Source: Candidatus Shapirobacteria bacterium S2_F12
GTDB taxonomy: Bacteria > Patescibacteriota > Microgenomatia > UBA12405
Direction of reading: 5' to 3'
Length of the DNA: 42,641 nt
NCBI GenBank assembly: GCA_019248165.1
Contig: JAEHHB010000001.1
Location: 1 to 42,641 of the forward strand
Position numbers and translations under genes: made by a program. Below the pieces are notes generated by a model. The model saw nothing but the letters and a program-made list of their open reading frames with translations. It searched no databases and was not told the DNA's origin. Positions 2,549 through 42,530 of this stretch are shown here, piece by piece; positions within the stretch are counted from its first letter, which is position 1, and each line of letters starts with the position of its first letter.

Positions 2549-4657
2549 ATGGCTGACCAAATTAAACTTACTAAAAATCGTGACGTTGCTATGGAAAAAG
2601 TCCGAAATATCGGTATTATAGCCCACATCGATGGAGGGAAAACAACCACCACAGAGCGTCTTTTATTTTATACTGGAAATATTCACAAGATTGGCTCAGT
2701 TGACGACGGGACCACGACTACTGATTCGATGATTCAAGAGAGAGAGCGGGGAATAACCATTCAATCTGCCTGTGTCACCACTTTTTGGAAAGAACACCGC
2801 CTAAACATTATCGATACCCCTGGACACGTCGATTTTACAGCTGAGGTTGAGAGATCTCTCCGTGTACTAGACGGCGCTATTATGATTTTCGACGGCAACG
2901 CCGGAGTTCAAGCTCAATCAGAAACTGTTTGGCGACAAGCCGACAAGTATGGAGTTCCCAGAATTGCTTTTGTCAATAAAATGGATAAAATCGGTGCCTC
3001 TTTTGATAACACCTTACATAGTATCCACGAAAAACTTCGAGCCCCTGTGGTTCCAGTCGTTATTCCTATTGGTGAAGAACACGATTTCATTGGAGTAATC
3101 GATTTAATGAACCAAAAAATGATAATTTACGACAAAGATGAAGAGGGTATGGAGTTTACGGTTAAAGATGTTACTGATGACTATAAAGACAAGGTCCACA
3201 AGTATCGTTCCCAAATGGTAGAAAAAATTGCTGGTGAAGACGAAACCTTGATGGAAAAATTTCTAAATGACCAAGAGATTTCGGTTCCTGAGTTAAAATC
3301 TGTTTTAAGAAAGGCTACAATTGATAGAAAATTATTTCCAATATTTTGTGGTGCTGCTTGGAGAAACAAAGGTATTCACCCTGTTCTTGATGGAATTATT
3401 GACTATCTTCCATCTCCTTTAGACTTACCTCCAATTGAAGGATTTAATCCCGAAAATAACGAGGTTATCACTCGAAAACCAATTAAATCAGAGCCTCTTT
3501 CCGCTCTTTTGTTTAAGGTCCAGTCTGATCCACATGTTGGCACTTTGTCCTATGTTAGGGTATATTCAGGAACTCTGAAGTCTGGTTCTGAGGTCTACAA
3601 CACTACCAAACAGAAGTCTGAGCGCATTGGTCGTTTACTTTTAATGCACGCCGACAAGCGGGAAGGTCTTGAGGAAGGTTTCGCCGGAGAAATCGTTGCT
3701 TGTATTGGGTTAAAGGAATCCACCACTGGTGACACTCTTTGCGATGCTAATAGTGTAATTTCTCTTTCTCCAATTCAATTTGCCGAACCAGTCATTTCAC
3801 TCTCAATTGAACCATCAACCGCTGACGATCAAGAAAAAATGGGTGCGGCTCTAAACCGTTTAGCCATTGAAGATCCAACTTTTAAAGTTTCTTATAACCA
3901 TGAAACCGGTCAGACAATCATTGCCGGTATGGGGGAGCTATACCTAGAAATTATTGTCGATCGTCTTAAGCGAGAGTTTGGGGTCAATGTCAAAACCGGT
4001 TCTCCTCAGGTCGCTTATCGTGAAACTATTTCTCAAAATGCTGACGGTGAAGGTAAATATATCCACCAATCAGGTGGTCACGGTCAATACGGTCACTGTA
4101 AGATAAAAGTGGAGCCAAAAAATCGTGGTGAAGGGTATGAATTTATCAATGCCGTCAAAGGTGGTGCTATTCCAGCTAATTTTATTCCAGCAATTGAAAA
4201 AGGTATTAAAGAAACCCTTCAAAAAGGAATTATTGCTGGTTACCCATGCACTGATATCAAAGTCACTGTTTACGACGGAACCTATCATGAGGTCGATTCT
4301 TCTGAAATGGCATTTAAACTAGCTGGGTCTTATGCTATTAAAGATGCCTTCCAGGCCGCTAAACCTTTAGTATTGGAACCAATCATGAAATTTGAAGTTA
4401 GTACTCCTTCAGAATTTTTAGGATCAGTTATTGGTGATTTATCTTCCCGTCGAGGTCAAATTAACGGGACAGTAGATTCAGCCAACTTTACTACCATTGA
4501 TGCTTTTATCCCCCTCGAAGATGTTCGAGGATATGCAACAGTTATCCGAAGCCTAACTCAAGGTCGAGGTTCTTTTTATATGGAACCAAGTCATTATGAC
4601 CCAGTTCCTCGTGATATCCAAGAACAACTTACTACCAAAGTTAATACAGGAAAATAG
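2549..4657 (+). CDS. fusA: Translation elongation factor G
   Basis: 702 aa. G1 motif AHIDGGKTT, DTPGHVDF, NKMD. Full-length EF-G architecture. Directly upstream of tuf. Confidence 0.97.
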   Translation: MADQIKLTKNRDVAMEKVRNIGIIAHIDGGKTTTTERLLFYTGNIHKIGSVDDGTTTTDSMIQERERGITIQSACVTTFWKEHRLNIIDTPGHVDFTAEVERSLRVLDGAIMIFDGNAGVQAQSETVWRQADKYGVPRIAFVNKMDKIGASFDNTLHSIHEKLRAPVVPVVIPIGEEHDFIGVIDLMNQKMIIYDKDEEGMEFTVKDVTDDYKDKVHKYRSQMVEKIAGEDETLMEKFLNDQEISVPELKSVLRKATIDRKLFPIFCGAAWRNKGIHPVLDGIIDYLPSPLDLPPIEGFNPENNEVITRKPIKSEPLSALLFKVQSDPHVGTLSYVRVYSGTLKSGSEVYNTTKQKSERIGRLLLMHADKREGLEEGFAGEIVACIGLKESTTGDTLCDANSVISLSPIQFAEPVISLSIEPSTADDQEKMGAALNRLAIEDPTFKVSYNHETGQTIIAGMGELYLEIIVDRLKREFGVNVKTGSPQVAYRETISQNADGEGKYIHQSGGHGQYGHCKIKVEPKNRGEGYEFINAVKGGAIPANFIPAIEKGIKETLQKGIIAGYPCTDIKVTVYDGTYHEVDSSEMAFKLAGSYAIKDAFQAAKPLVLEPIMKFEVSTPSEFLGSVIGDLSSRRGQINGTVDSANFTTIDAFIPLEDVRGYATVIRSLTQGRGSFYMEPSHYDPVPRDIQEQLTTKVNTGK

Positions 4658-13830: not shown

Positions 13831-14313
13831 ATGGCTTACAATAATAATCAAAATCAACACAAAAACGAAAGATTTGAAAAACCAGTTAGTGAATTTACTG
13901 ACAAAGTTTTACAAATAAAACGGGTATCCAAAAAAACTAAGGGTGGTAATCAGATTCATTTTACTGCCTTAGTAGTCTCTGGTGATAAAAAATCACGAGT
14001 TGGTGTTGGTCTGGGAAAAGCCAAAAGTGTTGCTGATGCAATCCAAAAGGGAATTAAAAAAGCCCAAAAATCATTAATTGAAATCCCAATTGTTAATGGT
14101 ACTATTTCTAGCTCTATTCAATTAAAATTTAAAGGTGGAATTGTTTTGATTCGTCCAGGTAAGACAGGAAGTGGGTTGATTGCTGGTGGTCCAGTTAGGG
14201 CTGTGGTTGAATTGGCCGGGATAAAAGATATTGTTAGTAAAATTATTGGCTCAAGAAATAAATCGATTAATGTTTGGGCTACTCTTAAAGCTCTAAGTTT
14301 ACTTCAAAAATAA
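13831..14313 (+). CDS. rpsE: 30S ribosomal protein S5
   Basis: IKRVSKKTKGGNQIHFTALVVSGD...GVGLGKAKSVADAIQKG...GSGLIAGGPVRAV. Confidence 0.96.
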   Translation: MAYNNNQNQHKNERFEKPVSEFTDKVLQIKRVSKKTKGGNQIHFTALVVSGDKKSRVGVGLGKAKSVADAIQKGIKKAQKSLIEIPIVNGTISSSIQLKFKGGIVLIRPGKTGSGLIAGGPVRAVVELAGIKDIVSKIIGSRNKSINVWATLKALSLLQK

Positions 14314-14315
14314 CT

Positions 14316-14765
14316 ATGGAAATTTTATCAAATCTTTCAAAAGTTACTCAAAAACCAGCTCGCCGTTGTGGTCGTGGAATTGGTTCTGGTCTTGGCGGTC
14401 ACACTTCTGGTCGTGGTCAAAAAGGTGCTAAATCTAGAGGCTACATCAAACTAACTTTTGATGGTACCAAAATTAAAAAAGGCTGGATCAAAAGACTTCC
14501 TTTTTTGCGAGGTAAAAATCGACTTAATAATCAAAAAAACATAATAACCTTTAACTTGTCACAACTTAACAAGTGGTACGAGTCAGGGGACCTGGTCGAT
14601 ATTAATACCTTGTCTCAAAAAACAAAAATATCTTTTAAACGACTCAATGCTACCGTAAAGATTTTATCTTTCGGAGAATTATCCAAAAAACTTAATATCA
14701 AAGGGCTTTTAGTGTCAAAAATTGCTCATGAAAAAATTATTACTGCTGGTGGTAATATAGAGTAA
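14316..14765 (+). CDS. rplO: 50S ribosomal protein L15
   Basis: RCGRGIGSGLGGHTSGRGQKG. Starts 2 nt after the rpsE stop, so no L30 gene lies between them. Confidence 0.95.
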   Translation: MEILSNLSKVTQKPARRCGRGIGSGLGGHTSGRGQKGAKSRGYIKLTFDGTKIKKGWIKRLPFLRGKNRLNNQKNIITFNLSQLNKWYESGDLVDINTLSQKTKISFKRLNATVKILSFGELSKKLNIKGLLVSKIAHEKIITAGGNIE

Positions 14766-22929: not shown

Positions 22930-25900
22930 ATGGTATGGTTGTTTTTTAATAAAATAAAATTAGTTTTTACCTTCACTAAAACAGTACTTTACTGCATATT
23001 TATATTTAATATTTTTTATTTTTTCCGCTCTCCAGTGTTTGCTGCCACGTATTATTGGAACCAAGCGGATTGGGCTGGAGGTGAAGATACTACTAACTAC
23101 CCCAATCATTCAAATAACCAGTCCAATTGGACAAAATATTTTTCTAAAGATGTTGGAATTAGTGTCGGCTCTGGAGTCGTCACTCTACTCTCGACCACAG
23201 CTGTTGTCACCCACAGTTCTTCATCAGATTTTACTTCAGGAACTACTAATAGTACTAGTATCAATGGTTCAGGCCAAATTCAGCTTTCAATGAACTCTGG
23301 AAACGTAAGTCTGGATGGTGGTGGGGCCCATACTTGTGCTACTACTTCAGACGGTAACGCCTTTTGTTGGGGAAACAACGCGTCTGGTCAATTAGGTATT
23401 AATTCAACCACTCAATCACTTGTTCCAGCGCAAGTGAAAGGTATTGGTGGTGTTAGTACTCTAAGCGATGTTAAACAAATTTCAGCAGGAACAAGCCATA
23501 CTTGTGCCGTAAAAAATGATGGCACGGTTTGGTGTTGGGGATTAAATACGGAGGGAAGATTGGGGAACGGCAACAATACCCAGCAATTATCACCTGTACA
23601 AGTAAAAGGTCTGGGTAATACTGGGGTTTTGACTAATATTTTAAAAGTTTCTGCTGGCGACACCCACACCTGTGCTATTAGTAACAGTGGCTATGCCTAT
23701 TGTTGGGGTTCAGGAAATTGGGGGCAGCTTGGAAATAATCAACAGTCAAACTCTACTTATCCTGTTGCAGTTAGCAATTTAACCAATCTTGTCGATATTT
23801 CTACAAGCGAAAATTTCAGTTGTGCTGTAAAAAGCGATGGGATTGGTTGGTGTTGGGGTCTAGGACAATGGGGACAAATTGGAAATGGTATTTTAGCTGA
23901 TGCAAACATTATTCCTAAACAAGTAAGTGTCGTTACTAATTTTGAAAAAATCGTTACTGGATCTCATTATCACAGTTGTGGCCTGACTACTGACAAAAAA
24001 ATATATTGTTGGGGTTATGGTGAGTATGGCAATCTTGGTAGTGGTAGTTTTCTAGGTGCACAAGCAACTCCTGTTCAAGTAACAGGAATCACAGATGCTG
24101 AAGATGTTAGTGCAGGCTACTATCATAGCTGTGCCACGAGAACTAACGGTAGCGTTGTTTGTTGGGGTGGTAGCGACGATGGTCAGCTCGGAGATGGTAC
24201 TAATATTCATAGAATTAGCACTTTTGTCACCGTAAGTAATATTTCTACTGGCAGTATAGTAACTAATGGCGCTTATCAAAGTTGTGCTCTAAAGACTGAT
24301 GGTTCGGTAGTTTGTTGGGGTAATAATGGCAGTGGACGTTTAGGTAATAATAGTACTACCAATACTAATATTCCTGTAAATACGCTTAACAACACTGGTG
24401 ATGCCCAACTTTTTTTAACTGGCTTTGCTAGTCAAGGGACTTTTGTTTCACCTGTTATAAATTTAACCAAAGAAGGTGGATTATTTTATTTAGCGTTAGG
24501 TACAACTAAACCCTCTGGAACAACAATTAAGCTTGAATTTAAAACAGCTGCCTCAGAAATAGGCTTGTCCTCAGCAAGTTGGTTTGGCCCGAGCGGAATG
24601 AATACTTATTTTACTAACGATTCTTATAGCCCAGATCCAACCCTTGGTCTTTTACAATATGTTCAGTATCGTGCAACATTAGAAACGACAAATTCATTGG
24701 CCACCCCGTCACTCGGTTTAGTTCAATTTAAATATCAATCATTTAGTGATTCTGGTTTTTTAATTTCTTCTCCATACGACTCAGAAACTAATGAAAATTT
24801 AATATCTAATATTACCTGGTTAAAAAGTACTCCTACCGATACATCGGTTAAATTTCAGATTCGTACTTCTGCTGAAATGTCGGGTTTAGTGGCACAAGAC
24901 TGGATCGGGCCTGATGGCACTTCATCGACTTATTTTACAAATAATTTAGGGACGGTTACGCCTAATATCTTAAAAGACCAGTCTGCTGATAGGTGGGTTC
25001 AATACAAAACAATACTAGAAACCACTAATAATAGTTTTTCTCCAATTCTGTACGATGCCTCTATTACTTATGTGGTCAACGCTCCTCCTCAGTTTGACTC
25101 AACGTATCAAACGGATGGATTTGGCATCACTCGAGCCGCCACTCCTGGAATACTAAATTTTCTCTATAAAGTTCGTGATATTGACACTGATCAGGGGTCT
25201 GAAGGAAATCAATACAAATTATGGCCGTCTTTTCAGTACAGTATTGATAATGGTGTAAACTGGAACACTATTACACCAGATCAACTGACTGGATATACCA
25301 CAAACAATCCGATCACCTTATCTGATAATTCAACTTATTTTGAGGCGGCCACTGTTTGGGATGCTTCATCTGTTTTACCTGACACGTTTACAACTATGAA
25401 AATTAGGGTTATTGTCGACGACCACGAAGCCGCCAATAATACCACCGCCGTTACTTCCGATGCTTTTTATTTTGATACTAAACAGCCGACAATAAATACT
25501 GTAGAAGGCGGGGGAACGGGAATTAATATTAATCACAATCAACTCACCTCTTTAAATACAGATAAAACTAATAATAGTGGAGTTACACTTTATTTTTCCG
25601 CAACCGACGACTCTAATCTTTTAGTTCGTTATTCTACTAATTCTTCTTTTACGGGGGCTAATTATCAAGATTATGTTGCTTCGGTTGGGTTCACACTTCC
25701 AGTAGGTGATGGTGTCAAAACTGTTTATGCCCAATTTAAGGATATATATGGCAACGAGTCGAATGTCTATTCAGACACAATTCAACTGGATACCACCCCA
25801 CCAAGCAACCCCTCTTCAATATTATCCAAAGATATTTCAAATGAGGAAAATAATGAATATCGGATTTTTATTAATTGGCCAATTAGTATTGATCCTGACT

Positions 25901-28683
25901 GGATTGGTTATAAAATTTACAGGTTTGATGGTAGCGTCTTTGTTTTGGATCAAACAATTAACAATGTCAACACTAATTATTTAGTAAAAGATTCTTTAGC
26001 CAATCAAACAGAATATACTTACAAGGTAAGTAACTTTGACGATTTAAACAATGAATCTGTCGGTACTACCGTTATTCAAGTTACTGGTAGTACCCCTAGT
26101 GATACAACTTCTCCAATTATTAGTGGTATTAGTACTAATAATGTTGATGAAAACTCCGCCACCATCTCCTGGTCTACCAACGAAACAGCCACCACCACCG
26201 TCTTGTATTCCTTAACCAATGATAACTTTGAAACAACTAAAGGTGTCGATGGTTATAGTCTAAGCCATAGTGTTACTTTATCTGGTCTATCTCCGTCTAC
26301 AAATTATTTTTACAAACTTCGCTCAGTTGACGCTGCTGGAAACATAACCGAAACTACTGTAAGTTCATTTACTACCTTATCTGTCGATAATTCCGGCCCA
26401 ACCATTTCCACAGTTAATAATTCTAATATTACTCCTACCGGGGTCACTATTAGTTTTGCTACCAATGAGCTATCCAGTTCTTTTATTGAATATTCTACTC
26501 AATCAGGTTTTACCCAGGGTAATATTTTTGGACAAGCTGATTTAGTCACATCTCATACTGTCATTCTTAGGTCACTATCTCCTTCAACTACTTATTATTA
26601 CAAAATTAGATCAGCTGATTCTTTATCAAACGAGACCATTTCTACCCAGTATTCTTTTACCACATTAGCTGACCCATCAGATGTCACCAGTCCAACTATT
26701 TCTGGAGTTTCCGTCTCTGACATAACTTATTATTCCGCAACTATTAGTTTTACCACCGACGAAACTGCCTCTTCATTTGTAGAGTATGGTTTGACTGATA
26801 GTTACGGTAGTATCTACGGAAACAACACAGACACTACCACTCACACTATCAATCTTCCGGATAGTCTTTCTCACCAATCAACTTATTATTATCGCGTTCG
26901 AGTCAAAGATGCTGCCAACAATGAAACTATTGGTGTTGGCTATACTTTTATCACAGCTTCTAATCCAGCCGACATCACTCCACCAGTAATCTCCAATATC
27001 GATGTTGGTTTACCTTTACAAAATTCAGTTACTATTACTTGGGAAACTAACGAGCTATCAACTTCTTACATTGGATTTTCTACTGATTCTAGTTATTCAT
27101 CTGAACAAGGCAGTTCTTCTTTGACCACCAATCATTCCGTTACCTTAATTGGATTAAGCCCAGGAACTTCTTATCTATTGAGAATTAAATCAGCCGATTC
27201 TTCAGGAAATACGACCATTAATGATAATAGCGGTTCTGGTTACAATTTTATTACCCAAAGTGGTCACGCCCCTCCAGTCATCTCATCAATTGTTACTAAT
27301 AATGTTGCCACCAATTCCGCTAGAGTTAAATGGAACACTGACACTTCTGCCAATTCTTTTGTTGAATATTGGCTAAATGAAGATTCAGTTAATTGGTTTG
27401 GAAACAACACCCTTACTCAATCGCACGAAGTTACTCTTCCAAATCTCTTGTCTCAATCAACTTATCACTATCGGGTTCGATCAAAAGATTCCTCAGAGGC
27501 TGAATCAGTTTCTGCTTCTGGTACTTTTACGACACTCAATATTGGTGCAACCACAACGGAAGATTCAGACGATTTAAGGGACGAAGATTCAATCCTTGAT
27601 AGAATTAAAAACGGCACGGTTGAGTTTGTAAAAAAAGTAATAGACATCCTGCCTAGTACTTCAATCTCAGAAGACGATTTCATTGATAAAATGAATTCTA
27701 TGTCTCCAAAAATTGTTTCTTCTCCTTCAATTTCCTCAAATAATATAACTGTTGACCCGGGTGTTGACAGTATTACTGTTACCTGGACTACTGATAAAAA
27801 ATCTAATTCAATAGTTGCTTATGCTCCAGAAGATCAATACGATTCCAAAAAAGACAACCCTTATATGACTCTTGTCGGAAACCCTGATGAGTGGGTTACT
27901 AATCACTCAGTTACCATCAAAAATCTAAACCCAAATACTGTTTATCATTATGAAGTTAGGTCAAAATCCGAATATGGAAACTGGGCTGATAGCGATGATT
28001 TCACTTTTACTACTCTTTCAATTAACTCCGAAGTTAAAGATTTTCGTTTTACCGAATTAGGACAAAAGTCTGTTAGCGCCAACTGGTCTACTACTTTCGA
28101 ATCCCGCGCCATGGTCGAAGTTATTGATATCGAGAGTGGCAAAACCCTTACTAAATTTGAAGAAAAAGGTTTTAATCGTAACCACGAATTCGCGACTGAT
28201 CTACTACAAGCATCAAATAATTATCAATTAAAAGTTATAACAGTAGCCAAAGATGGTACTCTTTCTAAAGAATCTTTTTTTCCTTTCTCTACCACAACAA
28301 GTTCTGGGCCACCCATTATAAGTAATGTTCGTGTATCCAATGCGTTAATCTCAGGTTCTATTGAACAAGTCCAAACCATAATTTCTTGGAAAACAGACAA
28401 ACCATCTACTTCTAGAATTTTATATAATGAGGGGATGTCTGATGATTTATCTCAGTCTAGTAATCTTGATAAATCTTATGTTGTCGACCATATAGTAGTT
28501 ACTACCAACTTTAAACCAGGTAAGGTTTATAAATTTAAAGTTGAGAGCACTGATTCTAGCGGCAATAAATCTCTTTCTAAGGACTTTTTAATCATGACAC
28601 CGAAAACTCAAGAGTCAGTCATTAACCTTATTATTGACAATTTTATGGAGTCTTTTTCATTTGTTACAAAAGGAAAGAAATGA
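22930..28683 (+). CDS. Giant secreted/cell-surface protein: signal peptide, 7-blade RCC1-like beta-propeller, two beta-sandwich modules, about 9 fibronectin type III-like modules
   Basis: 1917 aa uninterrupted ORF. Hydrophobic N-terminus ending VFA-AT. Seven repeats of the type HTCA..DG...CWG.N..GQLG (about 23302-24397). Paired W.GP.G....YFT...YVQY+..LET modules. From about 25795 to about 28600, repeated modules of the type TSPxISxv....sATIsWtTdE.sss.veY....HsvtL.gLsPsT.YyY+v+S.D..GN. Confidence 0.85.
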   Translation: MVWLFFNKIKLVFTFTKTVLYCIFIFNIFYFFRSPVFAATYYWNQADWAGGEDTTNYPNHSNNQSNWTKYFSKDVGISVGSGVVTLLSTTAVVTHSSSSDFTSGTTNSTSINGSGQIQLSMNSGNVSLDGGGAHTCATTSDGNAFCWGNNASGQLGINSTTQSLVPAQVKGIGGVSTLSDVKQISAGTSHTCAVKNDGTVWCWGLNTEGRLGNGNNTQQLSPVQVKGLGNTGVLTNILKVSAGDTHTCAISNSGYAYCWGSGNWGQLGNNQQSNSTYPVAVSNLTNLVDISTSENFSCAVKSDGIGWCWGLGQWGQIGNGILADANIIPKQVSVVTNFEKIVTGSHYHSCGLTTDKKIYCWGYGEYGNLGSGSFLGAQATPVQVTGITDAEDVSAGYYHSCATRTNGSVVCWGGSDDGQLGDGTNIHRISTFVTVSNISTGSIVTNGAYQSCALKTDGSVVCWGNNGSGRLGNNSTTNTNIPVNTLNNTGDAQLFLTGFASQGTFVSPVINLTKEGGLFYLALGTTKPSGTTIKLEFKTAASEIGLSSASWFGPSGMNTYFTNDSYSPDPTLGLLQYVQYRATLETTNSLATPSLGLVQFKYQSFSDSGFLISSPYDSETNENLISNITWLKSTPTDTSVKFQIRTSAEMSGLVAQDWIGPDGTSSTYFTNNLGTVTPNILKDQSADRWVQYKTILETTNNSFSPILYDASITYVVNAPPQFDSTYQTDGFGITRAATPGILNFLYKVRDIDTDQGSEGNQYKLWPSFQYSIDNGVNWNTITPDQLTGYTTNNPITLSDNSTYFEAATVWDASSVLPDTFTTMKIRVIVDDHEAANNTTAVTSDAFYFDTKQPTINTVEGGGTGININHNQLTSLNTDKTNNSGVTLYFSATDDSNLLVRYSTNSSFTGANYQDYVASVGFTLPVGDGVKTVYAQFKDIYGNESNVYSDTIQLDTTPPSNPSSILSKDISNEENNEYRIFINWPISIDPDWIGYKIYRFDGSVFVLDQTINNVNTNYLVKDSLANQTEYTYKVSNFDDLNNESVGTTVIQVTGSTPSDTTSPIISGISTNNVDENSATISWSTNETATTTVLYSLTNDNFETTKGVDGYSLSHSVTLSGLSPSTNYFYKLRSVDAAGNITETTVSSFTTLSVDNSGPTISTVNNSNITPTGVTISFATNELSSSFIEYSTQSGFTQGNIFGQADLVTSHTVILRSLSPSTTYYYKIRSADSLSNETISTQYSFTTLADPSDVTSPTISGVSVSDITYYSATISFTTDETASSFVEYGLTDSYGSIYGNNTDTTTHTINLPDSLSHQSTYYYRVRVKDAANNETIGVGYTFITASNPADITPPVISNIDVGLPLQNSVTITWETNELSTSYIGFSTDSSYSSEQGSSSLTTNHSVTLIGLSPGTSYLLRIKSADSSGNTTINDNSGSGYNFITQSGHAPPVISSIVTNNVATNSARVKWNTDTSANSFVEYWLNEDSVNWFGNNTLTQSHEVTLPNLLSQSTYHYRVRSKDSSEAESVSASGTFTTLNIGATTTEDSDDLRDEDSILDRIKNGTVEFVKKVIDILPSTSISEDDFIDKMNSMSPKIVSSPSISSNNITVDPGVDSITVTWTTDKKSNSIVAYAPEDQYDSKKDNPYMTLVGNPDEWVTNHSVTIKNLNPNTVYHYEVRSKSEYGNWADSDDFTFTTLSINSEVKDFRFTELGQKSVSANWSTTFESRAMVEVIDIESGKTLTKFEEKGFNRNHEFATDLLQASNNYQLKVITVAKDGTLSKESFFPFSTTTSSGPPIISNVRVSNALISGSIEQVQTIISWKTDKPSTSRILYNEGMSDDLSQSSNLDKSYVVDHIVVTTNFKPGKVYKFKVESTDSSGNKSLSKDFLIMTPKTQESVINLIIDNFMESFSFVTKGKK

Positions 28684-29960
28684 AACCATTAATAGAAATA
28701 AAGAATCTTAATGTTATTTACAATTTAGGTAAACTTAACGAGTTCACTGCTCTGAAAAATATTAATTTAGAAATTTATCCAGGTGAATATGTGACTTTTT
28801 TTGGGCCATCTGGATGTGGCAAGTCAACCTTACTTTACACTATTGCCGGACTTGAATTTCCAACATCTGGGGAGGTTATAATTGATCAAAAAAAACCACA
28901 TGAATTAACTAAACAAAAACTGGTTGATTTTCATCGGTACACAATTGGCATGGTTTTTCAGGCTTATTATCTAATTCCTCATCTTAATATTATCAACAAT
29001 GTTATGTTGCCTGAAATATTTTCTGGTACGGATGTTCATCAAAGAGTATTAAAGGCCGAAGAGTTAATGAAGCGTTTTGGTATCGAATCCTTAGCCAAAC
29101 GAAAACCTTCTCAATTGTCTGGTGGACAACAACAACGAGTTGCTATTGCTCGTGCGCTTGTAAATGATCCTCTAATTCTTTTGGCGGACGAACCAGTTGG
29201 AAATTTAGATTCTAAAAATTCTGAAATAGTCTTAAAACTACTTGATGATATTCATCAAAAAGAAAAAAAGACAATTATTCATGTTTCTCACAACCCCAAA
29301 GATTTACAGTATTCAGACCGAAATTTTTTCATGAAAGATGGCCAAATCGAAAGTATTGTTCAAAATAAAAGAGTTGACCGAAATTTATCAAGCAATGATG
29401 CTGACTCCCTCCTCAAGGCTTATCCGTATTTAGATAAAAGTGAAATAGAATCTAAGCTGATTTTAAATCATATTATTTCTGATTATTCCATTGAGACTCA
29501 ACAACAAATGGAGAAAACTATCACTCGTTTTATAAAAGGCGAGATTAGTGAAAAACAATTAATTAGTTTGTTCGATAAACCACTTGAAGATGGTGGTTTT
29601 AATCTTTACAGTCAAACAGCCAAACAAATTGGACAAAAAGTTCAACAACTAGTGAAAAACGTCAATATTGTAAACCAAGAGGTTAATACAGAGTCTGATT
29701 TGGAGAAAAGAGTTAAATTGATCAAGTCTTATTTAACAGAAAAATATAAATTAAAATTAAATTATGATCAATTTCAAAGATTGGAAGAATTTTTAACTGA
29801 CCGTTTTACCTTTAAGCTAACCGAAAATAGATTCAACCAAAAAATTGACCAACCTTGGAGTCAGGGAGGGTTAGGGTTAAATAGTTCAACAGTTAAAAAA
29901 ATTTGCAGGGAAATTAAACTTATTTTATTTAAAAAGAAATTTAGAGATAATGAGAGCTAA
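28680..29960 (+). CDS. ABC transporter ATP-binding protein (MacB/LolD-like) with a roughly 200-aa C-terminal extension of unknown function
   Basis: Walker [10 protein letters not shown], signature LSGGQQQR, Walker B LLADEP, H-loop VSHN. ATGA start overlaps the stop of the giant gene. Residues from about 226 to 426 have no ABC counterpart. Confidence 0.88.
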
Positions 29961-31152
29961 AGATTTAATTGAAATCAGTTTACAAAATTTTAAAAATAGA
30001 AAATCAAGAATTTTCTTTACAATTTTAGGTGTATCTGTTGCTATTGGAGCAGTATTATTTTTAGTTTCATTTGGTTATGGATTACAAGCAAGTTTACTTG
30101 AAAAAATTACAACTACAGATTCTCTTCTGAGCCTTGACGTCATGTCTCCTGATTCCGAATTGATTAAACTAGACCAAGATACTTTAAACAAAATTTCTTC
30201 CATCAAGCATGTTGATAAAATAAGCCCTTATGTTGCCTACGCTGGTAATTTAACTATAAATGATCTTACTTCAGAAGCTATGGTTAATATTATCGATAGC
30301 AATTATTTAAAGTTTGACGGTATCACTCCAAAAATTGGTCGAAACTTTGAATCATCTGATGTAAATAAAGTTATTGTCAACAAAAGTGTTGCCGATCTTT
30401 TTAATCTCAATGGTAGTGATTTAATTGGTAAAAAAATTAAAGCCACAGTATTTATCCCCGAAATTGACGGTGAAAGTATGGTTGAAGAAGTTAAAGCTTT
30501 AGATTTAGAAAAAGATTTTGAAATTATTGGGGTTATCGAAGACGCTAATACTCAAGCTTGTCTTTTTATTCAAAAAAATGATGTTGTTCTGACAATTAAC
30601 GAATACAGCTCAGTTAAAGTTAAGATTGATAATGAATCAAACCTTAATACATCTAGAGAAGTCCTAACCTCTATGGGTTTTTTAGTTTCAGCTCTTTCCG
30701 ATACTATCGATCAAGCTAATAAAATTTTTGGAATAATTCAAATAGTTCTTGGTGTTTTTGGTACGGTCGCACTTATAGTTGCTGCAATTGGACTAATTAA
30801 CACAATGACAATTTCTTTACTTGAAAGGACAAATGAAATTGGTATTATGCGAGCCATTGGTGCTTCCCCGAGTGATGTAATGTGGTTATTCTTAGGGGAG
30901 TCTCTAATGATTGGTTTCTTGGGAGGGTTTAGTGGTATTTTATTGGGTGTAATCCTTAGTCAATTATTCCAAATGATTATTAATCTTTTGTCTCGTAGTC
31001 TAGGTGGTGAAGCTCTAAATCTTTTTTCTTACCCACTGTGGTTTATGTTTTTTATCATAATTCTGTCTACTTCAGTCGGGTTAATTGGTGGTTTATTCCC
31101 AGCTCGTCGTGCTGCTAAACTCAACCCTCTCGATGCTTTAAGGTATAAATAA
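29950..31152 (+). CDS. ABC transporter permease, MacB/FtsX-like (4 TM with a large extracytoplasmic domain)
   Basis: N-terminus LQNFKNRKSRIFFTILGVSVAIGAVLF. C-terminal FtsX domain LLERTNEIGIMRAIGAS...FPARRAAKLNPLDALRY. Overlaps the ATPase gene by 11 nt. Confidence 0.88.
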   Translation: MRAKDLIEISLQNFKNRKSRIFFTILGVSVAIGAVLFLVSFGYGLQASLLEKITTTDSLLSLDVMSPDSELIKLDQDTLNKISSIKHVDKISPYVAYAGNLTINDLTSEAMVNIIDSNYLKFDGITPKIGRNFESSDVNKVIVNKSVADLFNLNGSDLIGKKIKATVFIPEIDGESMVEEVKALDLEKDFEIIGVIEDANTQACLFIQKNDVVLTINEYSSVKVKIDNESNLNTSREVLTSMGFLVSALSDTIDQANKIFGIIQIVLGVFGTVALIVAAIGLINTMTISLLERTNEIGIMRAIGASPSDVMWLFLGESLMIGFLGGFSGILLGVILSQLFQMIINLLSRSLGGEALNLFSYPLWFMFFIIILSTSVGLIGGLFPARRAAKLNPLDALRYK

Positions 31153-39501: not shown

Positions 39502-39564
39502 TTTTTGCGCCTTAGTAAAAAGACACCTATTTCTTGTTAAGTAATAATTTTGTTACCTATAATA

Positions 39565-39593
39565 TTGACAATTTATGTGTTTAAAGTTATAAT
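39565..39593 (+). promoter_or_regulatory. Consensus sigma-70 promoter of the 39.8-42.1 kb cassette
   Basis: TTGACA (39565-39570), exactly 17 nt, TATAAT (39588-39593). A second candidate, TTGTTA-18-TATAAT, ends at 39563. Confidence 0.6.
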
Positions 39594-39826
39594 CCCGCGA
39601 CAATAAAAATATCAAAAATACGTGTATAGCAACGTATAATTTAATATTTTTAGAACTTTAACAAACTAAAGAGTGTTTATTATCATGTCAACAGTTTTAT
39701 AGACTCTACTAAGAGTAGAAACAGTATATTTCTATTTTCAGTGGAGTCTATAAAAAGGAGAATGTTGTTGATGGTTTAACAAAAAATAGGTACAAAAAAA
39801 CAAACTAAGAAAAGAGGTGTCAGGAA

Positions 39827-40324
39827 ATGAAGCAGCGGTTTTGGATTGTGTCACTAATCTTTGTCGTCGTTGTTGTCTTGTGTGGATTGCTTTTTTTGGG
39901 TGTCTTCCAGTCAAATAGAAATGACTATTCAATAACCGAAAAAACAGCGGTTACAAGCAGTCCTAATCCTTCAGTTGAAAGTAATTCAGAACAGCCCCAA
40001 GGTTCAAACGGAAATCTTTTTGGTTGGCCTTGGAGTTGGAGTTGGGGATTTGGCGGTAATAGCGACAATTCAGGCTCAAGTTACAACTCCGATTCGAATA
40101 GTAATTCGGGATCGAACTCTGACTTTGGATCAAATTACGACTATGATTTTGGAAACGATTCGGGTTCTAGTTGGGATTTCGGTCAAGACAGTTGGGGTTC
40201 CGACAGTTGGGATTTTGGTTCCGACAGTTGGGGATTTGATAGTTTTGATTCGGGAAGCGACAGTTGGGGTTCCGACAGTTGGGATTTTGGTTCCGACAGT
40301 TGGGGCGGCAGTGATGGTTGGTAA
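39827..40324 (+). CDS. Hypothetical TM-anchored protein with an acidic Ser/Asp/Gly/Trp/Phe low-complexity repeat ectodomain
   Basis: N-terminal hydrophobic helix FWIVSLIFVVVVVLCGLLFLGVF, then GWPWSWSWGFGGNSDNSGS...(SDSWG/SDSWDFG)n. AGAGG SD upstream. No recognisable family. Confidence 0.65.
   Translation: MKQRFWIVSLIFVVVVVLCGLLFLGVFQSNRNDYSITEKTAVTSSPNPSVESNSEQPQGSNGNLFGWPWSWSWGFGGNSDNSGSSYNSDSNSNSGSNSDFGSNYDYDFGNDSGSSWDFGQDSWGSDSWDFGSDSWGFDSFDSGSDSWGSDSWDFGSDSWGGSDGW
40187..40305 (+). repeat. Perfect 47-nt direct duplication (40187-40233 and 40259-40305) built from a GACAGTTGGG sub-repeat
   Basis: GACAGTTGGGGTTCCGACAGTTGGGATTTTGGTTCCGACAGTTGGGG occurs twice with a 72-nt period (24 codons). 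It encodes DSWGSDSWDFGSDSWG. Confidence 0.9.
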
Positions 40325-40349
40325 TTAACAAATTCGAAAGGAGATAAGT

Positions 40350-40910
40350 ATGAATAATAATTTAACTGATAAGTTCATGGGGTCGTCCACTGGAAACATT
40401 GTTGAATTTACCCCTGATATCGAAAAGACTCCGGTTAATCAATTTAAGATCAAAGGAACCGGGGTTCTTGTTGCCCAAAATCTCAAGGATGGACAGCTTT
40501 ATCCTAAGGGAGAGTCCTATCCAGTGTTCTTTTTGGACAACAACACTATGATAATCCGGCTAAACTATGGATTCTACTATTTTGACCGACCCACAATTTT
40601 AACAGGCGAATCAGCCAAAGAATTTGTCCCTCACGCTATTGAATTTGGTAAAAGAAATCAAGCCCCAGGTAGCTATTCATTTCAATGGCAAGGGATGGAA
40701 TTGTCGTTTATTGACATCGGTTATTTGATCTACGCAAACAGGAGTGGAAGTTGTCACCTCAATGACAAAACCGCCATTCGGTTTATACTTGCCCAACTTG
40801 GCAACGGAGACAGGTTTTACCTCGAAGATTGCAAAAACGGGACCGATCGTTGTTGGTTGGGTACATTTTTAGGGAGCAGTCTAGAACAAAACATTCTCAG
40901 CATCAACTAA
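40350..40910 (+). CDS. Hypothetical soluble protein (186 aa), no recognisable family
   Basis: AAGGAG SD 9 nt upstream. No TM segment. Aromatic-rich. C-terminal Cys cluster SGSCH...EDCKNGTDRCW. Confidence 0.6.
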   Translation: MNNNLTDKFMGSSTGNIVEFTPDIEKTPVNQFKIKGTGVLVAQNLKDGQLYPKGESYPVFFLDNNTMIIRLNYGFYYFDRPTILTGESAKEFVPHAIEFGKRNQAPGSYSFQWQGMELSFIDIGYLIYANRSGSCHLNDKTAIRFILAQLGNGDRFYLEDCKNGTDRCWLGTFLGSSLEQNILSIN

Positions 40911-40931
40911 AAAAAAGGAGGGCTTGTTGAC

Positions 40932-41498
40932 ATGTCTAATTCAAAAATCTCACCCAAAGGTATCAAAGGTTGGTTGTTTCTGTTATTAGAGTTTATTTTT
41001 CTCGGAGTACTTTTCTTCATTGCTTTGGAATTTGTCGCCCCTAATACTCAGGTAACTCAAGATACCGTAAAGAGTCTTACTGGGTATTTTATAAAAATCG
41101 GGGGTAAATTTCTCTTGGCCATTGTAATCAGTTTTCTTGAAGTGTGGGTAGTTTTTAAACATGTATTGGACACAAAACTATCCAACATGTTAGACAAACT
41201 AAAGATTCACTACAACGATAGTTATGCCATTATCTTGGTAGGTTTGATTACAAGTGTTGCCATAATGATTGCTTCCGTGGGTGACTCATCGGTACAATAT
41301 TTGTTGTACCAGATACTTACTCGAGGAAGTATTGGTTTTGCTGTTGCCACTATTTTCACTGTGATATTTGCAAAAATATTAGGTATGAATAGTATGGATG
41401 AGCTTCGTTTTTGGATAGACGAAAAGGCCAATAATTCCTATGTCATCATTATTGTCGGTGTCCTAATAGTTTCTACAATCCTGTCAATGAATGCCTAA
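40932..41498 (+). CDS. Hypothetical polytopic membrane protein with an internal duplication (tentatively DUF350-like)
   Basis: GGAGG SD. About 5 hydrophobic helices. Repeated N(D/N)SY(A/V)II(L/I)VG(L/V).I....I segments at residues about 94-116 and about 167-188. Confidence 0.6.
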   Translation: MSNSKISPKGIKGWLFLLLEFIFLGVLFFIALEFVAPNTQVTQDTVKSLTGYFIKIGGKFLLAIVISFLEVWVVFKHVLDTKLSNMLDKLKIHYNDSYAIILVGLITSVAIMIASVGDSSVQYLLYQILTRGSIGFAVATIFTVIFAKILGMNSMDELRFWIDEKANNSYVIIIVGVLIVSTILSMNA

Positions 41499-41515
41499 TC
41501 ACAAGAGGAGGACTT

Positions 41516-42061
41516 ATGACAGAAATTTTTGGGATAGTACTGTTAATAGTTTTTTTGATCTATCTATTTAGGTCACACGTCTTAGATCTGATTGGTGGCT
41601 GGTTGATACCGATTGTTCGTAAACATTGGATATCGGTAACCAATTGGTTTCAGAGAACTAATGTTAAATCAGAAAAATCGGACATTGAAGTTCAATACCA
41701 CCAGTGTCAACAAGTTCTATCATCAATTAAAAAAGCCCGATACGACACCGAAACCTCGATTGAAGAAATCAACTCAGAAAATAGAAAGCTCGAACTTGCG
41801 ATCAAAACCGCCTCTGATTCCCACCTGTCGACAGAAGATTATGACAAGCGGATAGAAAGAAACAAAACGCAACAGCATAAATTACTGATACAGTGCAATG
41901 AATTGGTAACAAAAGAACAAAGCCTTGAATCCATTATGGGAAAATTAAATATTGGTGTCCTTTTGACCACTTCAGAATTAGACAATCTAACCAGGGAAAT
42001 TTCTCGGTCAACAGAATATGTCAATAACATTTTGAACCAGTACCCAAAAGACACTTTTTAG
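41516..42061 (+). CDS. Hypothetical N-terminally TM-anchored coiled-coil protein
   Basis: GAGGAGG SD. TM IFGIVLLIVFLIYLF, then about 120 aa of heptad-like charged sequence (IEEINSENRKLELAIK...KEQSLESIMGKLN). Any PspA/LemA-like relationship is unproven. Confidence 0.6.
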   Translation: MTEIFGIVLLIVFLIYLFRSHVLDLIGGWLIPIVRKHWISVTNWFQRTNVKSEKSDIEVQYHQCQQVLSSIKKARYDTETSIEEINSENRKLELAIKTASDSHLSTEDYDKRIERNKTQQHKLLIQCNELVTKEQSLESIMGKLNIGVLLTTSELDNLTREISRSTEYVNNILNQYPKDTF

Positions 42062-42084
42062 TAAAAGACATCATTATGTCTGAT

Positions 42085-42148
42085 AGTCGGCTCTGGAGAG
42101 GGGTGAATGCTTGCAGTCTATCTGCCCATTCATCCCTCGAGCCGGACT
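42085..42148 (+). other. Long imperfect GC-rich hairpin (about 25 bp) between the cassette and the hammerhead
   Basis: AGUC-GGCUC-(UGGA)-GAGGGGUGAAUG...GCAG-UCUAU-CUGC...CAUUCAUCCCUC-GAGCC-(G)-GACU. No U-tract follows on either strand. Confidence 0.6.
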
Positions 42149-42152
42149 ATTA

Positions 42153-42203
42153 ACGTTAAATCGATGTGTATCGATTCTGATGAGTCCAAAAGGACGAAAA
42201 CGT
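42153..42203 (+). ncRNA. Type III hammerhead self-cleaving ribozyme (predicted cleavage between 42158 and 42159)
   Basis: ACGUU-A | AAUCGAU-GUGU-AUCGAUU - CUGAUGA - GUCC-AAAA-GGAC - GAAA - ACGU. All invariant core positions are present (C3 U4 G5 A6 N7 G8 A9, G12 A13 A14, A15.1-U16.1, H17=A, G10.1-C11.1). Stem I 7 bp, stem II 4 bp, stem III 5 bp and open. Confidence 0.85.
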
Positions 42204-42237: not shown

Positions 42238-42530
42238 AACCCCCAAAGAAACTGTTAAGCTGGATTCTGTTTATGTGTCATCTATCTATTCTCTTTACCT
42301 GGAGCTCTCAAAAACTAGATATTAACGCCCCATCTTAAGATTTCCACCAGGAGGATGCTCGTTTCACTTGGGCTCGCCGTATCTTCTTGCGAAGGCGGTT
42401 CGCTTACTCGTCTCTGTAGCATTGCCGTCCAATCACTTGGACTCCTACTTATTTAGATCCTGTGTTTTTTGTGGTCCAGACTTTCCTGTCCGAAAAATCG
42501 GACTTGACACTTCAATTTCTTTAGAGGTCA
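42238..42530 (-). ncRNA. rnpB: RNase P RNA (bacterial type, compact, about 290 nt; ends approximate)
   Basis: The reverse complement contains the universally conserved P4 strands ACAGGAAAGUCUGGAC and AACAGAAUCCAGCUUA (compare E. coli GAGGAAAGUCCGGGC and ACAGAACCCGGCUUA). Also GCUACAGAGA...ACCGCC, a 16-bp P1 (CCUCUAAAGAAAUUG with CAGUUUCUUUGGGGG), P2 (GUGUCA/UGACAC) and a P3 hairpin (GUCCGA-UUUU-UCGGAC). Confidence 0.85.

Follow-up and report, generated by a model that had tools for sequence, protein, structure and literature searches.

A conserved four-gene cassette with family links to PspA-type operons, flanked by a structured leader and a hammerhead ribozyme

We describe a four-gene cassette in a 42,641-nt stretch of bacterial DNA (contig JAEHHB010000001.1), the whole of which is referred to here as the window. 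The four genes, P1 to P4, lie head to tail on the + strand. Comparison of gene order and protein sequence indicates that the quartet is a conserved module and a real operon in several uncultivated bacterial lineages. We hold with moderate confidence that the cassette is a compact PspA-type system for membrane or envelope maintenance, a minimal variant of the PspA-associated operon class described by Ravi et al. (2024, mSystems; PMC11237479). The original prediction recognised no family with confidence for any of the four products and mentioned Psp/YjfL-type envelope-stress modules as a faint resemblance. Three of the four products are now placed, and the Psp/YjfL idea has become the best-supported reading: P3 is DUF350-like, P2 has a link to DUF4178 and the counterparts of P4 match the PspA_IM30 family. 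From these links we infer a function in envelope or membrane maintenance.

Conservation of the quartet

The four open reading frames (ORFs) are as tightly spaced as first described, with 25, 21 and 17 nt between them, and a strong Shine–Dalgarno (SD) sequence precedes each start codon (AGAGGTG, AAGGAG, GGAGG and GAGGAGG). A search of gene neighbourhoods, which had been proposed as a check on the cassette, found the four genes together and in the same order in other lineages. The order P1–P2–P3–P4 is kept in every fetched related contig of sufficient length, which amounts to about eight lineages (window/L001, L006, L008+L009, L017, L010-L013, L015/L016, L019/L020 and L021; L numbers denote related contigs, and four-digit numbers such as P0031 denote related proteins). 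L001 comes from the same species and has miaA and the permease gene upstream of the cassette. L006, in which P2 is 71% identical to that of the window, runs from the end of the permease gene through the leader, all four genes, the hairpin and the hammerhead to the end of rnpB. A third lineage is represented by L008 plus L009.

Conservation is uneven among the four proteins. P2 and P3 are 67-73% identical in a comparison in which P1 is 52% identical. At greater distance, the window proteins find their counterparts in the L010 group by BLAST at 1e-9 to 1e-13 for P2 and 1e-8 to 1e-11 for P3, with 26-30% identity, and the lowest P2 identity among the quartet loci is about 26%. Close relatives are rare: a word-indexed search of 5.8 billion proteins returned three for P2 and four for P3, and an exhaustive search of 1.84 billion representatives with the P2 profile returned 35 representative clusters only. 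Searches of GTDB genome contigs with the P2 and P3 alignments found nothing, as did searches of JGI metagenome contigs with the P2 alignment and the exact hammerhead 27-mer; the known JGI relatives evidently lie outside that collection.

Family links of the four proteins

P4 (41516-42061, +; 181 aa) had been described as a coiled-coil protein anchored by a transmembrane (TM) segment, and it does begin with one TM segment followed by long helices, which would form a cytoplasmic helical hairpin. We consider it likely that P4 is a strongly diverged PspA/IM30-like protein in which the amphipathic helix alpha0 is replaced by a TM anchor, because its counterparts match the PspA_IM30 profile and a profile of the window clade finds one of those counterparts. 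The fourth genes of L020, L019 and L021 match Pfam PspA_IM30 (PF04012) with E = 2e-7, 3.4e-7 and 2.6e-4, respectively, and these matches cover profile positions 33-168 or 36-210 of 220. A hidden Markov model (HMM) of the window-clade P4 proteins found the L020 protein at 24.8 bits, whereas the best of 2,700 composition-matched shuffles reached 15.7 bits, and the reverse profile found the L006 protein at 19.6 versus 13.6 bits. Alignment of the window-clade P4 proteins with the PspA-matching counterparts by hhalign spanned 119 columns (E = 0.0012, probability 19%). L006 P4 compared directly with PspA_IM30 gave E = 0.094, and hhalign of the window type against the L010 type gave nothing usable with the shallow alignments.

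A single-sequence AlphaFold2 model of P4 (pLDDT, the predicted local distance difference test, 79) has helices at residues 2-101, 107-145 and 152-175, in which 55-101 and 107-145 form a hairpin that is followed by the third helix. In this model P4 has, like classical PspA, IM30 and Vipp1, a long helical hairpin and then further helices, and the motif at its tip (A-x-x-A...polar loop...ED/DL) aligns with that of the PspA-like relatives. It differs from the classical proteins in being shorter, in reaching no PspA or Snf7 threshold and in its N terminus. PspA alpha0 is an amphipathic helix with no TM segment, whereas P4 and all of its positional counterparts start with a true, hydrophobic TM helix.

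P3 (40932-41498, +; 188 aa) was correctly described as an internally duplicated protein with five TM segments, made up of an extra N-terminal TM segment and a duplicated two-TM unit. Its two halves align, TM2-3 with TM4-5 (z = 4.3), and the motifs HYNDSYAI and KANNSYVI share the pattern N(D/N)SY(A/V)I ahead of a TM helix. DUF350 proteins are likewise built from tandem two-TM units, in each of which a conserved polar N-x-x-A motif precedes the second helix, a feature that P3 shares. P3 matches the DUF350 profile (PF03994) with E = 8e-4 over positions 10-129 of 133. Three of the seven members of the P3 family match DUF350, with a best E of 1e-5, and P0006 has a precomputed PF03994 match. P3 is also homologous to the third genes of L010, L012 and L013 (BLAST 1e-8 to 1e-11). 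Its second repeat aligns with residues 1-66 of Escherichia coli YjfL (z = 3.2), and hhalign of P3 against YjfL, with shallow alignments, found nothing significant. These similarities link P3 to the DUF350 family.

P2 (40350-40910, +; 186 aa) has no TM segment and no signal peptide, which agrees with its description as a soluble protein. The claim that it is a Cys-cluster protein did not survive: the family conserves none of the three cysteines of P2, and a relative 97% identical to it already has serine in place of one. A role as a Cys-cluster or metal protein was therefore rejected. The profile matches instead link P2, as a candidate divergent member, to DUF4178 through its relative P0031, which matches the P2 profile with E = 2.7e-13 and reaches Pfam DUF4178 (PF13785) at 26.2 bits, against a cut-off of 25, over profile positions 11-136 of 136. 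The window P2 itself gave no match to the DUF4178 HMM (gathering score 25 bits) at E <= 10. Most relatives of P2 have an N-terminal TM helix that is followed by basic residues and a linker, which would place the domain in the cytoplasm.

An AlphaFold2 model of P2 from a 36-sequence alignment is predicted with very high confidence (pLDDT 97.1; predicted template modelling score, pTM, 0.91) and contains 11 strands and 2 helices. Together with the lack of a TM segment or signal peptide, this agrees with the beta-rich, intracellular character predicted for DUF4178 (PMC11237479). Foldseek found no counterpart of the model (best E = 0.014 in PDB and 0.0096 in BFVD; TM-score, the template modelling score, at most 0.27), and such a confident predicted fold with no solved relative makes P2 a good target for structure determination. 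The conserved residues, F78, F92, F99, Q104, D122, G124 and G171, do not look catalytic, and we therefore treat P2 as a binding or adaptor domain. Separately, the part of the P2 profile that covers residues 90-160 finds matches in two giant proteins (E ~3e-5), with 6 separate stretches in P0036 (2457 aa) and 12 in P0037 (2235 aa), and a sub-domain of the P2 fold may occur as a repeat in large proteins.

P1 (39827-40324, +; 165 aa) is, as first read, a TM-anchored acidic repeat protein, with one N-terminal TM segment (residues 7-25) and a net charge of -18 over the whole protein, and would be a signal-anchored surface protein. Its mature part contains 37 Ser, 21 Gly, 19 Asp and 12 Trp residues with only one Lys and one Arg. 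The polyanionic Ser/Asp/Gly/Trp tail is encoded by a 36-nt tandem DNA repeat that specifies GSDSWDF units, and the protein ends in DGW. By the positive-inside rule, the P1 tail would lie outside the cell and the P4 helices inside. In L001, on a contig about 97% identical to the window, the repeat region (40169-40305 in the window; 2663-3088 in L001) is 72 nt, or 24 aa, shorter, so that P1 has 141 aa instead of 165. The difference is in frame, which supports the reading frame used here, and the predicted surface tail of P1 is variable in length between strains.

The counterparts of P1 in L010, L012, L015, L019/L020 and L021, identified by position, consist of a TM segment, a variable middle part, an acidic tail of repeats with Ser/Asp and aromatic (Trp/Phe) residues and an aromatic C terminus. 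This middle part takes the form of a long helical domain and a Pro-rich stalk in the distant lineages. The L006 protein has a lipobox-like LSFSGC sequence. No family in Pfam, NCBIfam, PADLOC or PHROGs matched P1. We also noticed that automatic gene calls misframe repeats of the P1 type and yield T/V/I/Q-rich products (L006 629-967, L020 2714-2983, L019 368-634 and the N terminus of P0015), so that the family is probably under-represented or garbled in protein databases.

The PspA-type reading draws on the company that these families keep. Ravi et al. described PspA operons that encode a CesT/Tir chaperone, a 7TM-spermine/spermidine synthase, a YjfL/DUF350 protein, the Ctha_1186 lipoprotein and a beta-rich DUF4178 protein predicted to be intracellular (PMC11237479); in the literature searched, DUF4178 was found in that paper alone, together with DUF350. 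As in that class, the cassette combines DUF350-type, beta-rich DUF4178-type, surface-anchored and PspA-family proteins in one operon, a co-occurrence that is present here at the level of divergent relatives, and in both no component has a tested function. The same paper names Band-7 proteins as partners of PspA systems, and L020 has a Band_7 gene of the flotillin/stomatin type (852-1610) two genes upstream of its cassette. The cassette differs from the published class in having four genes rather than six or seven, a much diverged PspA-like protein with its own TM anchor, and a DUF350 protein with 5 TM segments instead of 8. It also differs in that P1 has acidic Ser/Asp/Trp repeats with no apparent relation to Ctha_1186, and in carrying a conserved structured leader and a 3' hammerhead.

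A related class is the yjfIJKLMC operon of E. coli, which encodes a DUF350 protein, a metal-chelating DUF1190 lipoprotein, a DUF2491 protein and an ATP-grasp ligase (PMC11237479). There, too, a PspA-family protein (YjfJ), a DUF350 protein (YjfL) and a lipoprotein (YjfM) with an acidic D/S/G-rich stretch are encoded together. YjfM has a lipobox and then the acidic stretch; its resemblance to P1 is an analogy. Unlike the E. coli operon, the cassette lacks DUF2170, DUF2491 and ATP-grasp ligase genes (YjfC is a peptide-spermidine ligase), and P2 is DUF4178-like rather than DUF2491-like. The nearest relative with phenotypes is the bac cluster of Pseudomonas aeruginosa, whose phenotypes concern biofilm and rhamnolipid (PMC10948618) and shares only the PspA theme with the cassette.

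If the cassette works as a PspA-type system, its parts can be arranged as follows, although each individual step is less certain than the assignment to the class, and the topology, protein–protein contacts, ligand and membrane-protective function are all predictions. The polyanionic, Trp-rich and presumably disordered tail of P1 on the cell surface would bind or sense cations (Ca2+/Mg2+, polyamines or cationic peptides) or the state of the wall. P3 would be the membrane core and present two conserved cytoplasmic amphipathic loops. P2 would act as a cytoplasmic adaptor that is tethered by a TM helix in most relatives and free in the window lineage. P4 would be a PspA/IM30-like hairpin held at the membrane by its own TM helix, not by the classical amphipathic helix, and could form oligomers on the inner leaflet that stabilise damaged membrane or remodel it.

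PspA/ESCRT-III (endosomal sorting complex required for transport III) membrane-repair systems are universal; their partner proteins are lineage-specific and mostly without experimental tests. With four genes, no enzyme and no chaperone, the cassette is the smallest DUF350/DUF4178 association seen here. Its occurrence in very reduced genomes suggests that the four parts are the functional core of the association, and the minimal form offers a convenient experimental entry point.

Several observations weigh against this reading. At its base, the argument is one of guilt by association, given that the module and the DUF350 and DUF4178 proteins have no tested function. Scans of the four window proteins against Pfam, NCBIfam, PADLOC and PHROGs returned only a sub-threshold DUF350 match, in which P3 reaches 19.9 bits against a gathering score of 26. 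For P2, one of the 36 family members reaches DUF4178, and the window protein falls below the Pfam threshold. Homology of P1 to a known family, DUF1190 included, was not detected. The PspA_IM30 matches of the P4 relatives all lie below the gathering score (31.3 bits, for L020, versus 33.9), and the window P4 itself has no significant PspA match in Pfam. Profile searches of PDB with three P4 alignments returned generic coiled coils only, with no PspA or Vipp1 among them, and hhalign of P4 against E. coli YjfJ, with shallow alignments, gave a probability of <1%. In a Foldseek search with the single-sequence model of P4, the top matches, both non-significant, were CdvB2 ESCRT-III filaments (E = 0.036, TM-score ~0.32) and CHMP2A-CHMP3. 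Also missing from the cassette are the hallmarks of the published operon classes, the CesT/Tir (DUF2170) chaperone and the polyamine enzymes: no DUF2170 match or fifth gene was found in the window or any related locus, and none of the loci examined has a 7TM-spermine/spermidine synthase-like gene in the cassette or its flanks. Finally, ribozyme cleavage and the transcript ends, discussed below, are predictions from nucleotide sequence.

A different view of the same genes would put P1 at the centre. The cassette would then be a surface or host-interaction module of an episymbiotic bacterium resembling those of the candidate phyla radiation (CPR), with P1 as the effector (an adhesin, a binder of matrix or minerals, or a cation reservoir) and P2-P4 serving insertion, anchoring or quality control rather than a stress response. 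P1 is indeed the fastest-evolving and most unusual of the four proteins, with a repeat number that differs between near-identical strains, and the long helical ectodomain and Pro-rich stalk of its distant counterparts are typical of surface display. The organism is found in drinking-water, landfill, bioreactor, wastewater and manure metagenomes, among which wastewater, bioreactors and drinking water are biofilm-rich, and published genome features make the window look CPR-like (S5 and L15 adjacent with no L30; see below). However, the conserved core of the cassette is P2 and P3, the reverse of what would be expected if P1 were central, and P2, P3 and P4 have family ties that favour a PspA-type system. 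Pfam and NCBIfam scans found no adhesin, sortase or secretion domains. We therefore regard a surface module as unlikely, although it is the strongest of the alternatives to a PspA-type maintenance system.

RNA elements at both ends of the operon

The quartet is preceded by a promoter (39556-39593, +) that, as claimed, is a textbook one: TTGACA (-35, 39565-39570) and TATAAT (-10, 39588-39593), separated by a 17-nt spacer, match the consensus at 12 of 12 positions. Just upstream lies the sequence CCYATART (39556-39563). The combination of CCYATART and a following TTGAY has a single occurrence in each of the window, L001, L006, L010, L012, L015, L016 and L020, always on the + strand and upstream of P1. 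The leader that follows (39594-39826, +), estimated at roughly 230 nt, measures 233 nt between promoter and P1. It contains the motif TTAACAAACTAAAGAGT (39658-39674), a long hairpin (39695-39755) and an SD sequence with a mini-ORF, MLLMV (39762-39779), and its predicted folding is more stable than expected (z = -5.2).

At the far end, P4 is followed on the + strand by two 3' untranslated hairpins (42066-42151), of which the first is small (42066-42081) and the second long and imperfect (42082-42151), and then by a type III hammerhead ribozyme (42153-42203). Folding of the hairpin region gives -59 kcal/mol (z = -7.2). Comparison between the window and L006 shows purifying selection on both the leader and the 3' RNA elements, as judged from their sequences: identity is 81% over the first 170 nt of the leader and 83% over the 3' hairpin with the hammerhead, whereas fourfold synonymous sites are 38-43% (about 40%) identical, that is, saturated.

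The claim that the cassette ends in a hammerhead is upheld by comparative evidence rather than by the Rfam score. Rfam Hammerhead_3 (RF00008) scores 25.7 bits in the window, against a gathering threshold of 48.5, and 22.5-26 bits in L006, L009 and L013, and a copy in the phage contig L018 scores 44.6; all lie below the threshold. A 51-nt template, consisting of a 5-bp stem III, H17, a 7-bp stem I with a GUGU loop, CUGAUGA, a 4-bp stem II with an NAAA loop and a GAA element, fits the window, L002, L006, L009 and L013, and all 16 stem pairs form in all five. The catalytic core is intact in each of the five, with CUGAUGA, GAAA, a U16.1-A15.1 pair and A or U (non-G) at H17. Stem III is open, and seven pairs show compensatory double changes (four in stem III, two in stem I and one in stem II). 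In a four-sequence alignment of the 3' region, 96% of cells were paired, compared with 31-43% in slid controls, and two of the helices contain compensatory changes.

In L013 and L018, too, the hammerhead comes after a long hairpin, and the L010 contig ends inside a hammerhead of the same kind. The element therefore shares with known type III hammerheads of RF00008 the canonical core and three stems with stem III open. It differs from them in its sub-threshold score, in its position immediately behind a long hairpin, where it closes a chromosomal operon on the 3' side and faces convergent rnpB, and in its co-inheritance with an operon whose proteins are only about 26% identical.

The simplest reading of hairpin and hammerhead, judged from their structure and position, is a device for 3'-end formation or for separating cistrons. 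The long hairpin was rejected as a terminator, given that no U-tract follows it. L020 carries a classical intrinsic terminator at the place of the window's hairpin and hammerhead, which fits a 3'-end-forming role for the pair. Self-cleavage is predicted after A42158. The mRNA 3' end would thus arise by hammerhead cleavage just past the long hairpin and about 90 nt before convergent rnpB, with no intrinsic terminator, after transcription from the consensus sigma-70 promoter through the long leader with its motif, hairpin and mini-ORF. Assembled metatranscriptome contigs of low depth cover 40704-41168 and rnpB; they contain no read ends at 42158. We take 39556-42203 to be one self-contained transcription unit with the same moderate confidence as the PspA-type reading. 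A hammerhead kept at the 3' end across deep divergence, with a terminator in one relative, offers a clean natural test of what a bacterial hammerhead is for.

Three further observations concern the hammerhead and its surroundings. First, the L018 copy (3501-3555, on an IMG/VR contig with a terminase-like 571-aa ORF) is near-identical, with the same GUGU loop I and a stem II of GUCC-AAAA-GGAC; a GC-rich hairpin lies directly before it, and an SD sequence and gene start follow. Hairpin and hammerhead together may serve more generally in processing between cistrons. Second, one contig of a wastewater metatranscriptome shares nothing but the 37-nt hammerhead core (42163-42199) with the window and has unrelated flanks, which indicates that related hammerheads are transcribed elsewhere in such communities. 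Third, in a high-GC lineage (L013 2354-2648 and L010 5165-5440), about 300 nt of structured, conserved non-coding RNA lie between the P4 stop codon and the hairpin with hammerhead; the corresponding interval in the window is about 20 nt.

The leader may be a cis-regulator or the operator of a factor, to judge from its conserved layout. The motif TTAAMAA(N)CT(N1-3)AAGART, with 0.03 occurrences expected per window by chance, occurs once per locus in four lineages (window/L001, L006, L010-L012 and L015/L016) and is absent from L020. The leader motifs were spotted by eye and then checked as patterns that derive from the same sequences, and only their uniqueness per locus counts as evidence. L010, L012 and L015 have a hairpin of unrelated sequence at the same place in the leader, each followed by a short ORF. 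After a strong SD sequence, the mini-ORF peptides are MLLMV in the window, MYLNC in L010 and MLLQE in L012, and the ORFs of L006 and L015 are longer. This comparison of layouts (window 39556-39826, L010 1533-1882, L012 1619-1935, L015 8193-8737 and L020 2141) rests on three lineage groups. No Rfam family matches the leader, and blastn-short between leaders of distant loci yielded noise only. The leader hairpin as an intrinsic terminator was rejected, as there is no U-tract on either strand.

A bolder proposal, which we consider rather unlikely, takes in both ends of the operon. The whole promoter-to-hammerhead unit would be an ancient, co-inherited minimal PspA system that is largely RNA-controlled, with the leader representing a new class of cis-regulator that tunes the system to membrane or cation stress and the hammerhead serving as an obligatory 3'-end device. 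If so, the hammerhead would leave a hairpin-protected mRNA with a cyclic-phosphate end, severed from read-through RNA antisense to convergent rnpB; a natural bacterial hammerhead would gain a defined physiological job; and reduced CPR-like genomes would harbour a membrane-anchored relative of ESCRT-III and PspA.

Composition, origin and surroundings of the cassette

The cassette had been described as richer in G+C than its flanks, at 45-50% against 25-35%. That bulk estimate was wrong: the four genes have a G+C of 0.35-0.44 against a window mean of 0.352, and housekeeping stretches (the ribosomal and EF-Tu regions) reach 0.40-0.415. A shift in G+C at third codon positions (GC3) is nevertheless real. 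The four genes have a GC3 of 0.365-0.433, compared with 0.256 +/- 0.037 in the background (maximum 0.341, n = 43), and all four exceed each of the 43 other window genes (Mann-Whitney p = 6e-6; pooled Fisher p = 1e-13).

This shift bears on a rival account of the cassette's origin, in which it would be a horizontally mobile, self-contained promoter-to-ribozyme unit from a donor of higher GC, with the hairpin and hammerhead as a relic of a phage or mobile element. Besides the GC3 of the four genes, two findings speak for mobility: the promoter motifs, leader layout and hammerhead accompany the genes into unrelated flanks (MazE/PIN upstream in L010; other neighbours in L015), and the phage contig L018 carries a hammerhead with the same loop and stem II beside a terminase gene. 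However, L006 has the cassette at the identical site between permease and rnpB, L009 shares the 3' junction with rnpB, and these syntenic lineages are saturated at synonymous sites. Any transfer would thus be old, and donor composition would have decayed by now. GC3 as a sign of recent transfer was rejected for this reason, and a recent acquisition of the cassette is not supported.

Other evidence points the same way. No integrase, transposase, repeats or tRNA target flanks the cassette in the window. No relative of P2 was found in viral contigs, with the close P2 alignment as query, or in plasmids, where tblastn with the DUF4178-passing relative P0031 found nothing. The hammerhead, while attached to the operon, is under purifying selection with compensatory changes, which indicates that it is maintained and not a relic. 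We consider a mobile origin improbable; it concerns where the cassette came from and is compatible with the functional explanation as a PspA-type system.

The further suggestion of a defence module, here a membrane-acting anti-phage, abortive-infection or toxin-immunity module, is very improbable: defence systems often combine small membrane proteins with coiled-coil proteins, the cassette of L010 adjoins a MazE/PIN toxin-antitoxin pair and the GC3 is atypical, but PADLOC gave no significant match (best, LmuB with E = 0.0039 on the P4 coiled coil, is weak noise; P2 and P3 gave none), PHROGs gave none, P2-family queries found no relatives in viral contigs or plasmids, the proteins have no nuclease, NTPase or sensor domain, and the cassette sits among core genes (ychF, miaA and rnpB) rather than in a variable island.

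The neighbours are those first reported. The permease gene upstream encodes an AI-2E family transporter (Pfam E = 4e-57), and the gene for RNase P RNA (rnpB; 42246-42521, -; Rfam 105 bits) lies downstream and convergent to the cassette. The best Rfam model for this rnpB is archaeal, not bacterial, although the window is otherwise bacterial (miaA, the S10-spc operon and EF-Tu). Within the S10-spc-alpha ribosomal cluster, only 2 nt separate the S5 gene from the L15 gene behind it (13831-14765), with no L30 gene between them. Adjacency of S5 and L15 without L30 is a published hallmark of CPR/Patescibacteria genomes, and on this feature we infer that the window is CPR-like. Elsewhere in the window, a 1917-aa ORF with an N-terminal hydrophobic segment (22930-28683), next to ABC-transporter-like genes (28680-31152), probably encodes a giant surface protein.

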